Positions 5,452 to 30,200 of a DNA stretch of 64,000 nucleotides are shown piece by piece (position 1 is the first letter of the stretch; every line of letters begins with the position of its first letter). Below the pieces are notes generated by a model. It was not told the origin of the DNA. It saw only the letters and a program-made list of their open reading frames with translations, and did not search any database. A program made the translations under genes and the position numbers. The DNA lies in the NCBI RefSeq assembly GCF_046105845.1, contig NZ_CP151004.1; one strand, 5' to 3'. The DNA is from Escherichia coli (GTDB taxonomy: Bacteria; Pseudomonadota; Gammaproteobacteria; Enterobacterales; Enterobacteriaceae).

Positions 5452-5982
5452 ATGAGCTTACTCAACGTCCCTGCGGGTAAAGATCTGCCGGAAGACATCT
5501 ACGTTGTTATTGAGATCCCGGCTAACGCAGATCCGATCAAATACGAAATCGACAAAGAGAGCGGCGCACTGTTCGTTGACCGCTTCATGTCCACCGCGAT
5601 GTTCTATCCGTGCAACTACGGTTACATCAACCACACCCTGTCTCTGGACGGTGACCCGGTTGACGTACTGGTCCCGACTCCGTACCCGCTGCAGCCGGGT
5701 TCTGTGATCCGTTGCCGTCCGGTTGGCGTTCTGAAAATGACCGACGAAGCCGGTGAAGATGCGAAACTGGTTGCGGTTCCGCACAGCAAGCTGAGCAAAG
5801 AATACGATCACATTAAAGACGTTAACGATCTGCCTGAACTGCTGAAAGCACAGATCGCTCACTTCTTCGAGCACTACAAAGACCTCGAAAAAGGCAAGTG
5901 GGTGAAAGTTGAAGGCTGGGAAAACGCAGAAGCCGCTAAAGCTGAAATCGTTGCCTCCTTCGAGCGCGCAAAGAATAAATAA
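5452..5982 (+). CDS. ppa: inorganic pyrophosphatase
   Basis: 176-aa ORF; sequence recognisable as E. coli PPase (…[29 protein letters not shown]…). Confidence 0.95.
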
Positions 5983-6000
5983 GTTCTTCTAGCGCAATAA

Positions 6001-6036
6001 CCCTGAACGCCGGGCTTCGGTTAGTAAGGGTTTTTT
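6001..6036 (+). terminator. putative rho-independent terminator downstream of ppa
   Basis: GC-rich stem region CCCTGAACGCCGGGCTTCGG…AAGGG followed by TTTTTT. Confidence 0.5.
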
Positions 6037-6060
6037 ATGCCCGCGATAAATAAACACGCC

Positions 6061-6411
6061 TTATTCCACCACCGCCTGCAAACGTAATAACGCCTCTTCC
6101 ACCACTTCACCCGCAGCCAGACCAATACGCTTTGCCAGCCGGGCGCGTAGATCCATCATCCGCACCTGATTCACCAGCACCACGCCGTGCACATCGCCTT
6201 CTTCGCAATGTAAAGGAACGCTGAATCCTGCATAACGGGCAAAATTTCCGCCCTGCGTAATGGGGGCCACCAGCGTCATTCCCAGTTGATTAAAGGCTTG
6301 AACGGAGAGCACAAGCGCAGGTCGACCAGCACCTTGCTGTTCATGGCCGCTTGCTGGATCAAAGCCAACCAGCACAATGTCTCCCCGTTCAAATTCACTT
6401 TTCTTTACCAT
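6061..6411 (-). CDS. chpB: MazF/PemK-family endoribonuclease toxin ChpBK
   Basis: 116-aa ORF (MVKKSEFERGDIVLVGFDPASGHEQ…); start overlaps stop of upstream antitoxin gene. Confidence 0.9.
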   Translation of the reverse strand: MVKKSEFERGDIVLVGFDPASGHEQQGAGRPALVLSVQAFNQLGMTLVAPITQGGNFARYAGFSVPLHCEEGDVHGVVLVNQVRMMDLRARLAKRIGLAAGEVVEEALLRLQAVVE

Positions 6412-6656
6412 ATTTCGTCACCCGCAGGGGTGGATTTACCCCAGACATCCTGCTCGCTAAGTTCCGTGGCGTTCATGTCACACTGTGCCAGCAGTTCATC
6501 AAGCGAGTAGCGCCTGGAGATGGGTGTCAGAATCAGTTGATTGTTGCTCACTTGCGCCTCCACGCTCTGCCCCGGCCGTAAGTTAAGTTCTTTCATCACA
6601 ACATTAGGAATGACCATACCTGAACTATTCCCCCATCTTTTTATGGTAATACGCAT
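6405..6656 (-). CDS. chpS: MazE/AbrB-type antitoxin ChpBI
   Basis: 83-aa product from internal Met (MRITIKRWGNSSGMVIPN…); SD AAGGAGG upstream; classic antitoxin-toxin gene pair. Confidence 0.88.
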   Translation of the reverse strand: MRITIKRWGNSSGMVIPNVVMKELNLRPGQSVEAQVSNNQLILTPISRRYSLDELLAQCDMNATELSEQDVWGKSTPAGDEIW

Positions 6657-6669
6657 CTGCACCTCCTTA

Positions 6670-6688
6670 AGTTATACAAAGTATAACT
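6670..6688. promoter_or_regulatory. 8-3-8 inverted repeat AGTTATACaaaGTATAACT immediately upstream of chpS; candidate autoregulatory operator
   Basis: Perfect palindrome a few bp upstream of the chpS SD; TA operons are typically autorepressed at such sites. Confidence 0.5.
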
Positions 6689-6815
6689 CACGGTGCTACA
6701 GGAAACGTTTTACCCCTGCGCATTTGTGAACGCCAGCAGAGTTTTTTATGCGTTAACAGATATGGAAAGCGGCTCGGAGAGAAAAGCAAAAGGTGAGGGA
6801 ATTACAAAACAGAAT

Positions 6816-6856
6816 GCGAGTCGTCTCGCAAAAAACAACGCCACCCGAAGGTGGCG
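6816..6856 (-). terminator. rho-independent terminator downstream of ytfP (tandem hairpins)
   Basis: On minus strand GCCACCttcgGGTGGC followed by GTTGTTTTTTG, then GCGAGacgaCTCGC. Confidence 0.75.
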
Positions 6857-6861
6857 TATGG

Positions 6862-7203
6862 TTACTTATCCCTGTCTAACCAGTCGCCGCTTTCAATTAG
6901 CTTTAATCCATCGACGGGTCGTTGATAAACGTACATCCATGCACTCCCGTACGGCGTCTGAATCAACTGGCGCGCGTATTCACCGCCCCTGGTGCGCAAG
7001 GCATCAAGTTCGGCCAGCGTGGCGTTGTCAATACGATAAACTTCACCGTGTACTGTTCCGTTCCCCGGAACTGCGCCTGGATAGTGGCCCAGGCTATACA
7101 ACTGGTAGTTATCGATACTGAAATCGCCCAGTAACTGGGCATTGGTCATCCAGTGACTGTTGCCTTGTTTGTGGCGTAAACTGCCGTAGACAAATATTCG
7201 CAT
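6862..7203 (-). CDS. ytfP: gamma-glutamylcyclotransferase-like (AIG2-like) protein
   Basis: 113-aa ORF (MRIFVYGSLRHKQGNSHWM…) with YGSL motif; directly downstream of tamB. Confidence 0.85.
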   Translation of the reverse strand: MRIFVYGSLRHKQGNSHWMTNAQLLGDFSIDNYQLYSLGHYPGAVPGNGTVHGEVYRIDNATLAELDALRTRGGEYARQLIQTPYGSAWMYVYQRPVDGLKLIESGDWLDRDK

Positions 7204-15817: not shown

Positions 15818-16372
15818 ATGACCCTACGCAAGATTCTGGCACTCACCTGCCTGCTGTTGCCGATGATGGCTTCCGCACATCAGTTCGAAACCGGTCAGCG
15901 AGTGCCGCCGATTGGCATTACCGATCGTGGCGAGTTGGTGCTTGATAAAGATCAGTTTAGCTACAAAACCTGGAACAGCGCGCAGTTAGTGGGAAAAGTG
16001 CGAGTACTGCAACATATTGCTGGTCGCACCTCTGCAAAAGAGAAAAACGCGACGCTGATTGAAGCGATTAAATCAGCAAAGTTACCGCACGATCGTTACC
16101 AGACCACCACCATTGTTAACACCGACGACGCGATTCCGGGTTCCGGCATGTTTGTGCGCAGCAGTCTGGAGAGTAATAAAAAGCTTTATCCCTGGTCGCA
16201 GTTTATTGTCGATAGCAATGGCGTCGCGCGCGGTGCCTGGCAGCTGGATGAAGAAAGTTCCGCTGTAGTGGTGCTGGATAAAGACGGTCGCGTGCAATGG
16301 GCCAAAGACGGGGCGCTCACACCGGAAGAGGTACAGCAAGTGATGGGCCTGCTGCAAAAGTTGCTCAAATAA
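15818..16372 (+). CDS. ytfJ: periplasmic protein YtfJ
   Basis: 184-aa ORF with signal peptide (MTLRKILALTCLLLPMMASA). Confidence 0.85.
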   Translation: MTLRKILALTCLLLPMMASAHQFETGQRVPPIGITDRGELVLDKDQFSYKTWNSAQLVGKVRVLQHIAGRTSAKEKNATLIEAIKSAKLPHDRYQTTTIVNTDDAIPGSGMFVRSSLESNKKLYPWSQFIVDSNGVARGAWQLDEESSAVVVLDKDGRVQWAKDGALTPEEVQQVMGLLQKLLK

Positions 16373-16401
16373 TGGCAATAACATAAATTCTGCAAAAATA
16401 A

Positions 16402-16432
16402 TTTTCCCCTATCGTTATCTATGGGATAGGGG
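16402..16432 (-). terminator. bidirectional-type terminator hairpin between ytfJ and ytfI
   Basis: CCCCTATC…GATAGGGG stem flanked by T/A runs. Confidence 0.55.
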
Positions 16433-16461
16433 AATTAAGCCTCTGAGTTCTTACGCCGAAC

Positions 16462-17373
16462 TCATACTGGTAACGCTAGTTGCTTTTTTTTAAACGCCTC
16501 AATGGTCGATTTATATTTCTCGCAAATCTTTTCTTCGGTAATATCACTATCTGCGGCCAGATTCGCACTTACTATCGCATCCACTTGTTCGGCTAATTCG
16601 ACTTGTTGGCAACCTGCATTAACCAGAAAATTATAAATAAGAGAGTAATCTTCATCCTCCAAAACAACAGAGGAACCATTACGAAAACGTTCATCCCCTC
16701 CATAGATTTTAAGCGCAAAGCCCAAAGATTCTATGACTATGGCAAAATTATCATCAATTATTTTTTCGTAAATATACCATCCATCGCATTCTTTAATTCC
16801 ACCTCCTGGAATTTGGAGGTCAAATTTACCCCGTTTTAATTTACTTACTATATCATCCAATACAGCATAACCTAAAGACACGTCACCAAACGCCTGGCGA
16901 ATATAACCTTTAATCCTTTCCGGTATGTCAGACTGTTTTTTCTGCAAAATATCCCAGGCATACAATCTTCTGTTTTGTTCTAACGGAAACTCGCGGTTTT
17001 TGAAATCCATGAATGAGTTATACTCATTTATTGTTATGGGAATTTCTTCGTATTCAAATCCACTGCCTCGCAATGTCATTATATATTCGGCACCGTTATC
17101 TTTAAGGCTGAAACTGATAAGAAACTTATCCATGGTGTTAACAGTTTCATTTTTTGATGAAAGTACCTGATAACTATTTTTATCAATCTGAGTTGCGCAA
17201 CGAAAGAACTCCCGCAAAGTTAACAGGCTATCATAATTTGAAATCCAATCTTTTTTATTAAATGCATGCTGGATATTGTTAAAAAAATTGTTTGAATGTG
17301 TTTTTGTATGCGATGATTTTATAAATAACTCCACCGCACCAATAAAATTATTGTGTCTGATCCTGGGTAACAT
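16462..17373 (-). CDS. ytfI: uncharacterised protein, low-GC gene
   Basis: 303-aa ORF in markedly AT-rich DNA between cysQ and ytfJ; no recognisable domain. Confidence 0.7.
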   Translation of the reverse strand: MLPRIRHNNFIGAVELFIKSSHTKTHSNNFFNNIQHAFNKKDWISNYDSLLTLREFFRCATQIDKNSYQVLSSKNETVNTMDKFLISFSLKDNGAEYIMTLRGSGFEYEEIPITINEYNSFMDFKNREFPLEQNRRLYAWDILQKKQSDIPERIKGYIRQAFGDVSLGYAVLDDIVSKLKRGKFDLQIPGGGIKECDGWYIYEKIIDDNFAIVIESLGFALKIYGGDERFRNGSSVVLEDEDYSLIYNFLVNAGCQQVELAEQVDAIVSANLAADSDITEEKICEKYKSTIEAFKKKQLALPV

Positions 17374-17584
17374 ATGGCTACCTTATTTTATTTGGTTATT
17401 TTATGTCGCCATTAAATATCTCATTATAGAAGTAAACTATCAAAAAACGCTCATTATTAAAATGTAACTTATTAGCAATTGAATTTTTGCACTTTAAATA
17501 CAATCTCTTTTTATTTATAACTTTTTAGGTTGGGAGAAATCAGGATGGCAGAATCAGGAAATACACTGTTTCTGCCATCTGAAT

Positions 17585-18325
17585 TTAGTAAATAGACACT
17601 CTGAATCCCGGATTCAGGAACGACTCGCGCGGAGTGTAATCCAGCGGTTTACCCTGCCAGTCGTGAACGTGCGCTCCGGCAGCTGCGGCCACAGCATGTC
17701 CAGCGGCGGTGTCCCAAATATTCGTTGGTCCGAAGCGCGGGTACAGCTGCGCCTGTCCTTCCGCCACCAGGCAGAATTTCAGCGAAGAGCCGATGGACGT
17801 GGTCTGATGTTCGCCAAGCTGTTGCAGATACTCTTTCAGCTCCGCATCTGCATGGGAACGGCTGATAACCACCAGCGGCGGGCGCGCATCGCGGACCTGA
17901 ATCTGCTTGCGCACACCGCACTCTTCTTTCCAGGCTTTGCCTTCTGCCGCGCTGTACATTACGTTCATTACCGGCGCATACACCACACCTAAAATCGGTT
18001 TTCCATGGTCAATGAGCGCAATGTTAACGGTGAATTCGCCATTACGTTTAATAAACTCTTTAGTACCATCCAGTGGGTCTACCAGCCAGTAACGCTGCCA
18101 GTGCTGACGGACTTCCCAACCGGGAGGATCTTCTTCAGAAAGGACCGGAATATCCGGTGTCAGCGTACGTAAACCGTCCATAATAACGGTGTGAGCGGCA
18201 ATATCCGCTGCCGTTACCGGAGAATTGTCCGCTTTGCTGACGACGTCCATCGGTTTCGTCCCGTCGTAGACCTGCATAATGGCATCGCCTGCATTCCGTG
18301 CAAGCTGGCATACTTGATCTAACAT
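17585..18325 (-). CDS. cysQ: 3'(2'),5'-bisphosphate nucleotidase
   Basis: 246-aa ORF ([20 protein letters not shown]…) with inositol-monophosphatase-family motifs. Confidence 0.93.
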
Positions 18326-28797: not shown

Positions 28798-29055
28798 TTA
28801 TATCCCCGCCCTGAAGGACGGGGTTTTACGGCGCACTGGATAAACCAGGCCAAGCGTATGCTGGTTGATCAAATAATATCCCCCAAGCGCAGCAATATTA
28901 ATATTCACCTGCAATGGGTCGCTATCTGCCTTAAAAATATTGTGTTTCTTCCCTTCATCCAATAATTCCATTAAATGCAAGTGCGCATGATTAATTTCTA
29001 AGAGACGCTGTGATTTTGCATAATGCACACCTTTACTTTGGTTTTCACTATGCAC
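28798..29055 (-). pseudogene. ytfA: ytfA-like remnant ORF; 3' end reads into the IS left-end hairpin
   Basis: 85-aa GTG-start ORF; last 7-8 codons (…TPSFRAGI) are encoded by the IS terminal hairpin; upstream in-frame TAA near 29182. Confidence 0.4.
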
Positions 29056-29405
29056 AATTTTTAAAAACCTGGGATTAGCAATATAATAACCCCAGGTAAA
29101 ATCGATGATTTTTTCAATGGATTTTTGTGGCTGGTTAACCTGCTGATTAACGAACGCACCGATACCGACAGCGTAGAATAATTACATACCGCACAACAAG
29201 AATGTATGGTGTAAGGCGTTGTCAGTCATCTCCCTCCCTGGATGCATCGTTATATCCGTGATGAGCGATTTTTGATATTAATATCTTTCACCATCCGCTA
29301 TCTTCACTACTTCAGAAAACAAACTTATTTTTATTAATATCGATTATTTATTCTGTGCACATTCAGCTGCGATATTTATAAAAAAATTAAACAGGCAAAA
29401 ATACA

Positions 29406-30200
29406 ATGACATTACCAACCACTATTTATTCATTTCCTGCATATTCACCCCGTTTTTCGTCCACCGACAAACCAGTAAAATTAAAATTTCATCAATACGC
29501 ACGCGCTACATTACTTTCAAATCGTGGAAGAGATCATAATTGCGATGGCAGACATACTGTTGAGATCCACAAACTAGATCTCTCAGACTGGCAAGCATTC
29601 AATAAGTTAGCGACGAGGTGTAATGCTTACGATGGAATAACAATGAATGGTGATAATTCTTTTGGATGGAACCATGAAGCTACATTAGATAATATTCACG
29701 CCCAGAAATACAATAAAGCTTACGCGGGTGCGAGGTTAACCGCAGAACTGAAATATTTATTGCAAGATGTCGAATCCTTCGAACCCAACAGTAAATACAC
29801 AATACACGAGGTTGTTTTGGGACCTGGTTATACTACTCCAGACTATACCGGCCAATCGATAGGATACGTTGTAACCCTTCCTGCCCAAATGCCTAATTGC
29901 TGGTCATCTGAACTACCAACAATCGATCTTTATATCGACCAACTTCGCACTGTTACAGGCGTTTCTAATTCCCTCGGATTCATCATTGCTGCATTGCTAA
30001 ACGCGTATTCTGATTTACCCCATGATTTGAAAATTGGTCTGCATTCCTTATCAAGTTCAGCAGCAATCTACTCGGGTTTGGGTTTCGAGCGAGTGCCGCA
30101 GGAGCGAGACATCAGTTGCGCTCGTATGTATCTAACGCCAGCAAACCATCCTGACTTATGGACACAAGAGAATGGTGAATGGATCTACTTGCGAAACTAA
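29406..30200 (+). CDS. yjfZ: uncharacterised protein YjfZ
   Basis: 264-aa ORF in AT-rich DNA; no recognisable domain. Confidence 0.75.
   Translation: MTLPTTIYSFPAYSPRFSSTDKPVKLKFHQYARATLLSNRGRDHNCDGRHTVEIHKLDLSDWQAFNKLATRCNAYDGITMNGDNSFGWNHEATLDNIHAQKYNKAYAGARLTAELKYLLQDVESFEPNSKYTIHEVVLGPGYTTPDYTGQSIGYVVTLPAQMPNCWSSELPTIDLYIDQLRTVTGVSNSLGFIIAALLNAYSDLPHDLKIGLHSLSSSAAIYSGLGFERVPQERDISCARMYLTPANHPDLWTQENGEWIYLRN

Follow-up and report, generated by a model that had tools for sequence, protein, structure and literature searches.

The ytfI gene of Escherichia coli is very probably the only gene of an old, H-NS-silenced orphan islet that was inserted between ytfJ and cysQ. In the stretch of 64 kb analyzed here (hereafter the window), ytfI is a minus-strand ORF of 303 aa with an ATG start (16462..17373), flanked by ytfJ (15818..16372, plus strand) and cysQ (17585..18325, minus strand); a megablast search of 5,426 complete E. 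coli genomes gave the locus order cpdB-cysQ-ytfI-ytfJ-ytfK. The MG1655 counterpart is ytfI (b4215, “protein YtfI,” 312 aa), and RefSeq labels the ORF in E. coli either ytfI or “hypothetical protein.” Earlier publications already cover the gene, its insertion in some strains only and its binding by H-NS. What is added here is proof of the polarity of the event, the age of the islet, its two-state distribution in E. coli and the reuse of the junction by unrelated cargo, together with a selected protein for which billions of sequences yielded no relative and a GC content that is equally low across the alleles compared. The comparisons show that an islet of about 1.2 kb, comprising one gene, a promoter region for it and two terminal hairpins, entered the genus Escherichia in a single ancient insertion at the overlapping stop codons of ytfJ and cysQ, and has since persisted as a presence/absence polymorphism, at 32–35% GC in the four alleles compared.

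The base composition of the islet sets it apart from its surroundings. GC content is 0.354 in the ytfI ORF and 0.280 in the 211-bp spacer upstream of it (17374..17584, minus strand), which likely holds the ytfI promoter; across the two together (16462-17584) it is 0.340, vs. 0.516 for the window. Among window tiles of 1,123 bp (mean GC 0.517, SD 0.040), this one is the lowest, and tiles equally low make up 0.03%. Relative to the 42 other long ORFs of the window, ytfI is low in GC (0.354 vs. 0.532 ± 0.030; z about -6), in GC3 (0.322 vs. 0.581 ± 0.063; z about -4.1) and, to a lesser degree, in local codon adaptation (0.60 vs. 0.69 ± 0.055; z about -1.65). The windowed GC and codon usage calculations thus bear out the original prediction, made from the sequence alone, that the ORF and some 200 bp upstream of it are unusually AT-rich. 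The entire islet, taken from the stop of ytfJ to the stop of cysQ (16373..17584), measures about 1,212 bp with a GC content of 0.343. After this islet, the part of the window lowest in GC (28931-30200) contains yjfZ (DUF2686; ORF 29406..30200; GC 0.42, GC3 0.36), which adjoins an IS200/IS605 transposase and a TetR-family fragment, and this stretch is complete in only 2,226 of the 5,426 E. coli genomes. Like ytfI, yjfZ is an uncharacterized, low-GC and variably present gene in a core-gene context, but the two are unrelated in sequence, and yjfZ has a named DUF and a transposase as neighbor, whereas ytfI has no mobility gene nearby.

The limits of the islet were set by alignment to the empty site of strain H2, and the junctions were compared across 15 taxa. 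In addition, we retrieved 80 loci around YtfJ, with one genome per species, and located ytfJ, cysQ and ytfI in them by tblastn. In about 70 other species of Enterobacteriaceae, ytfJ and cysQ are convergent, with stop codons that abut or overlap, and with the exception of a few lineages the pair abuts or overlaps throughout the 80 loci; the arrangement was found in Citrobacter, Salmonella, Klebsiella, Raoultella, Enterobacter, Kosakonia, Pluralibacter, Trabulsiella and the cryptic Escherichia clades. The overlap sequence itself, TCAATAAATAG, is kept from Klebsiella to the cryptic Escherichia clades. In the empty junctions that were printed out, ytfJ typically ends in ...CTC AAT AAA TAG and overlaps cysQ by 11 nt, the cysQ stop being the reverse complement of a TCA within the ytfJ end string. 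YtfJ is 185 aa long at all empty sites examined, vs. 184 aa with an ...LLQKLLK end at four of four occupied sites. At the left junction of the window (16358..16380, plus strand), ytfJ ends in ...CTC AAA TAA where empty sites have ...CTC AAT AAA TAG, and at the right junction (17578..17597, plus strand) the cysQ stop, read as TTA on the plus strand, lies beside TAAATAG, the ancestral overlap sequence. Since the overlap is conserved in the outgroups, the empty site is the ancestral state and ytfI represents an insertion of about 1,212 bp.

Within E. coli, the site exists in two states. The junction is empty in 3,795 genomes and carries ytfI in 1,622, which accounts for 5,417 of 5,418 genomes with the locus, and ytfI is nearly full-length in 1,604 of the 1,622 carriers. 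The resulting proportions of about 30% occupied and 70% empty give a rough frequency from a collection biased to laboratory K-12 and O157:H7. The horizontal acquisition proposed in the original prediction is consistent with this presence/absence pattern, the junction being empty in about 70 enterobacterial species as well as in 70% of E. coli, and it is in its timing that the proposal needs correction. Diverged alleles with 77% (P0008) and 70% (P0010) amino acid identity were found at the same locus. In a deep Escherichia lineage that carries a 70%-identity allele (L009), the junctions are homologous to those of the window, indicating one insertion event. Between the window and this lineage, dS is 0.69 for ytfI, 0.67 for cysQ and 0.57 for ytfJ, and the dS of its flanks resembles that of other cryptic clades, somewhat below that of E. 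albertii. Because the dS of ytfI matches that of its flanks, the sequence comparison indicates that the acquisition is old, not recent. GC content is 32–35% in all four ytfI alleles compared and, on the same evidence, the low GC of the islet does not imply a recent arrival. For both states to have lasted across a dS of about 0.6, repeated homologous exchange or some selection is needed. At two further loci with a 70%-identity ytfI (L004 6967-7421 and L005 4146-5126), an insertion sequence with a DDE_Tnp_1/DUF772 transposase lies directly downstream of ytfI and occupies the place expected for ytfJ; L009, with a similar allele, has ytfJ in its normal position.

A search of the islet for a transposase or integrase gene and for terminal inverted repeats found none, and its junctions can be read, ambiguously, as an imperfect duplication of 0 to 8 nt. 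No donor of the islet was identified in the protein, phage and plasmid collections searched. An IS200/IS605-like element was considered and set aside, since the hairpins at the two ends are unrelated to each other and the conserved target tetranucleotide is absent. An integron cassette was likewise rejected, as attC-type core sites were not seen at the junctions.

The original prediction had also held that the AT-rich segment is probably silenced by H-NS, and published data agree with it as far as binding is concerned. By ChAP-seq, Higashi et al. showed that the ytfI insert of K-12 is bound by H-NS and that binding spreads from ytfI to cpdB, cysQ, ytfJ and ytfK, whereas the empty site of strains SE11 and SE15 shows no H-NS binding (Higashi et al., 2016, S10 Fig; PMC4720273). 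The composition of the islet is in keeping with these data: TATAAT-like hexamers occur at 35 per kb in the islet vs. 6.9 for the window, TpA steps are twice as frequent as in the window, and A/T tracts 2.5 times. The H-NS nucleation motif TCGATAAATT shows no enrichment, occurring twice in the islet, about as often as expected by chance. A candidate ytfI promoter in the spacer consists of a -35-like TTGATA (17443-17438), a 17-nt spacer and a TG-extended -10-like GATATT (17420-17415), elements that are consensus matches only. The spacer also contains a perfect TATAAT (17428-17423) where K-12 MG1655 has TATAGT, so the window allele may have a stronger promoter than that of K-12. A promoter scan of the islet was uninformative, with four sites vs. 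4.8 in shuffled sequences. In addition, ytfI ranked first among the “disputed” sigma-32 ChIP-chip sites, a signal that later work put down to artefact (PMC3870955; PMC2996942). Under laboratory conditions, H-NS would keep both ytfI and the many promoter-like sites inside the islet silent.

Each end of the islet carries a hairpin. The first (17537..17586, minus strand; inverted repeat I1) lies right after the cysQ stop and is probably a cysQ terminator supplied by the islet; its predicted RNA fold has a free energy of -21.4 kcal/mol (z -5.6), and all four alleles retain it, the most diverged of them having one compensatory pair. The second (16404..16434, minus strand; inverted repeat I12) resembles an intrinsic terminator, follows ytfI and faces ytfJ. 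It has a perfect 10-bp stem followed by AAAAUUAUUUUUG, a U-run, and its fold z is only -1.7, so that a role as terminator is suggested by its shape and U-run. Rfam contained no match to the region. With the ends of the two core genes no longer overlapping, the hairpins would serve to terminate cysQ, ytfI and perhaps ytfJ, and may thereby insulate cysQ and ytfJ after the loss of their shared overlapping end. We also observed a 7-bp inverted repeat, CTGAATCCGGGATTCAG, at 17601-17617, within the last codons of cysQ, which was scored as terminator-like. An inverted repeat is present at the matching position of the printed empty sites too, and it may have been the terminator of ytfJ and cysQ while the two genes overlapped.

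The islet conforms closely to what has been described for H-NS-bound, strain-specific segments. Indeed, ytfI itself is an example of these, with the same locus, AT-richness and absence elsewhere, and its raised non-synonymous divergence is like that reported for H-NS-bound genes (PMC4720273). The islet of the window does not differ in kind from the published K-12 example (PMC4720273); the differences are its 303-aa allele and its TATAAT in place of TATAGT. Its single gene and promoter region, its sharp junctions and the existence of natural strains of either state make the ytfI islet a clean, minimal example of xenogeneic silencing. It is also one of the genes of unknown function in K-12, and while the present results leave current understanding unchanged, they mark ytfI as a reasonable target for phage, stress or structural studies. 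A second class that it resembles is that of the E. coli ORFans, which Daubin and Ochman (in 2004) reportedly characterized as AT-rich, fast-evolving and taxonomically restricted genes. In agreement with that class, ytfI is AT-rich, confined to one genus and dispensable, has no known donor, and has a high dN with dN/dS below 1. A length of 303 aa is high for an ORFan, and unlike the class ytfI has been kept at one locus across lineages separated by a dS of about 0.7.

As for the product, a bold reading is that YtfI founds an Escherichia-only family involved in conflict (for example, phage defence, immunity or a host-interaction effector), kept polymorphic by selection, and that the ytfJ/cysQ junction is an integrase-free recurrent hot spot that captured unrelated cargo in E. 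coli, E. albertii, Citrobacter youngae and Kluyvera; we consider this unlikely. The proposal that ytfI acts by itself in anti-phage defence or as a toxin follows a hint in the original prediction, and we consider it unlikely as well. The presence/absence polymorphism, a dN that is 15–30 times that of the neighboring genes and a variable C-terminal half would all suit such a gene, as would a weak, sub-threshold match to Cas6b (E 3e-4, residues 112-152), the sole match in PADLOC. That match, however, covers 41 residues of a 240-position model at 14–19 bits (E 3e-4 to 6e-3) and weakens in the diverged alleles. No nuclease, NTPase, TIR, Sir2 or transmembrane module was recognized in YtfI, the islet has no conserved second ORF as a toxin-antitoxin pair would require, and the neighbors are cysQ, cpdB, ytfJ and ytfK, with no defence or mobility genes among them. 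Typical defence hot spots vary in their cargo, unlike the ytfI site, which in E. coli holds one type of cargo only. Silencing by H-NS would, moreover, keep a defence gene off. The sole phenotype encountered for ytfI is a raised tolerance to HOCl upon induction of its ASKA clone, ytfI being one of 23 genes from that screen, and cells with the clone grew under induction with 0.1 mM IPTG (PMC8228696), which argues against a free-standing toxin. As neither a significant model match nor a partner gene nor neighbors related to defence or mobility were found, and as overexpression is tolerated, the hint at a defence or toxin function was not substantiated.

A different possibility is that ytfI has no selected protein function today and is decaying junk that is tolerated through silencing by H-NS. 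Several observations would fit this. Apart from the 70% of genomes that lack the gene, there is a common lineage in which a T7 homopolymer at codons 29–31 (17281..17287, minus strand) is reduced to T6, causing a frameshift, and a protein cluster of 251 aa with 729 member sequences (P0007) begins downstream of it. One genome carries an IS1 insertion within ytfI (H27) and another retains a 14% remnant (H65). Because of the genomes without the gene, the frameshifted lineage and the IS1-disrupted copy, ytfI is regarded as dispensable. Decay would also be compatible with a dN that is very high relative to the flanks and with a protein to which no family or fold could be assigned. The pattern of substitution, however, makes this reading improbable. 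Between ytfI alleles, dN/dS is 0.22–0.38 (cysQ, 0.01–0.03; ytfJ, 0.02–0.11), and it stays below 1 in every 50-codon window, with lower values over residues 1–150 and higher values over residues 150–303. Conservation between alleles is seen in the ytfI frame only, the antisense ORFs not being kept, and the full-length ORF of 303–312 codons is preserved in four alleles with dS up to 0.85, at a base composition that would make about 7% of random codons stops and that puts the chance of 303 stop-free codons at about 2e-10. Taken together, these comparisons indicate that ytfI encodes a real, fast-evolving protein under purifying but relaxed selection. The window allele, with 96.5% DNA identity to that of K-12, is 9 aa shorter than the 312-aa K-12 protein, having TGA rather than TTA at codon 304; other alleles stop at 303, 306 or 307 aa, and since the C-terminal tail is variable among alleles, the 303-aa form is not a pseudogene. 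The T7/T6 tract may reflect simple decay or may be a switchable tract.

YtfI is an acidic protein of 34.9 kDa (pI 5.3) that is predicted to be soluble and has no transmembrane or hydrophobic segment. Homology scans against Pfam, NCBIfam, PADLOC, PHROGs and PDB sequences were carried out, and no family match was obtained in Pfam or NCBIfam even at permissive thresholds. Among 5.8 billion clustered proteins, the only relatives were from E. coli and Shigella, and a profile built from six ytfI alleles recovered no others. When 1.84 billion representatives were searched exhaustively with phmmer, the output was confined to E. coli-like fragments with identities of 68% or more and one chance match, a lone distant protein of 1,100 aa (P0036) that was dismissed as a repeat protein with compositional similarity. 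The phage and plasmid collections yielded no true match, the apparent “plasmid” matches being mislabeled chromosomes or a 655-kb replicon. Thus, remote homology searches uphold the orphan status assigned to the protein in the original prediction, with no relative found outside Escherichia and Shigella. The weak matches to Cas6b (PADLOC, E 3e-4), phrog_3250 (E 1e-3) and T4 gp32 (E 0.07) all fall within residues 71–163 and were treated as chance, because they fade in the diverged alleles and vanish or change when a profile is used. Truncated YtfI entries in UniProt (A0A377DE36 and A0A3A6TYV3), which appeared in the Foldseek output, are named “Galectin domain-containing protein,” a label that looks like an automatic artefact since Pfam shows no galectin domain even at an E-value of 10.

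AlphaFold2 modeling of YtfI on a shallow alignment was unreliable (pLDDT 57.6, pTM 0.41), and a central fragment modeled alone was worse (pLDDT 43.4). The layout in this low-confidence model is helices, five strands, helices, five strands and helices. It is conceivable, if very improbable, that YtfI binds nucleic acid through a PUR-alpha/Whirly-like fold of two beta-beta-beta-beta-alpha modules, and a comparison of the two beta modules by hhalign did not detect an internal duplication. Within the preferred reading of an old, silenced orphan islet, the product would be a cytoplasmic alpha/beta protein whose N-terminal half is more constrained and whose C-terminal half is more variable. We would guess, with low confidence, that YtfI is neither an enzyme nor a free-standing toxin but a binding or accessory protein that is dispensable and expressed only under certain conditions.

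The ytfJ/cysQ junction has also received other cargo. In E. albertii NBRC 107761, a different insert of 1.5 kb and 33% GC occupies the same junction (L015 5556-7059). The 385-aa product of its ORF (5792..6949) is a pentapeptide-repeat protein (Pfam PF00805) that weakly resembles the type III effectors PipB, PipB2 and SopA. The location of this PipB-like ORF at exactly the same junction raises the question of whether YtfI, too, is secreted, effector-like cargo of a type III system. The first 40 residues of YtfI contain one acidic residue and 12 Ser, Thr or Asn residues, and such a composition is typical of type III secretion signals. It may, however, merely mirror AT-rich codons; in addition, YtfI and the E. 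albertii ORF are not similar in sequence by tblastn, ytfI is intact in K-12 even though that strain has no working type III system, and we know of no effector screen that lists YtfI. An effector role is accordingly given a very slight chance. The remaining notion, that ytfI is ancestral to the Enterobacteriaceae and was deleted from most lineages, would account for its age within Escherichia and a dS that matches the flanks, but it is refuted by the outgroup junctions, as independent deletions would not recreate the 11-nt overlap and 185-aa YtfJ shared by Klebsiella, Salmonella, Citrobacter, Enterobacter and cryptic Escherichia, and no ytfI homologue was found anywhere else among the 1.84 billion representatives searched, so that its probability is close to nil.

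Two further inserts at the junction were observed outside Escherichia. In Citrobacter youngae ATCC 29220, a 2.1-kb insert (L042 5559-7678) codes for two proteins, a TIGR04222 membrane protein whose tail is rich in Cys, Gly and Ser and a radical SAM/SPASM maturase; together they look like a peptide-modification pair. In Kluyvera (L058 and L064, about 5556-6460), a 0.9-kb insert of 55% GC carries an ORF similar to serine-type D-Ala-D-Ala carboxypeptidases, at scores well below the family cut-offs. The inserts of E. albertii, C. youngae and Kluyvera share the insertion point of ytfI, between two stop codons, and their cargo is unrelated to it. The right junction of the C. youngae insert repeats about 30 nt of the 3′ end of ytfJ, a flanking copy that sets it apart from the ytfI islet, which has none.
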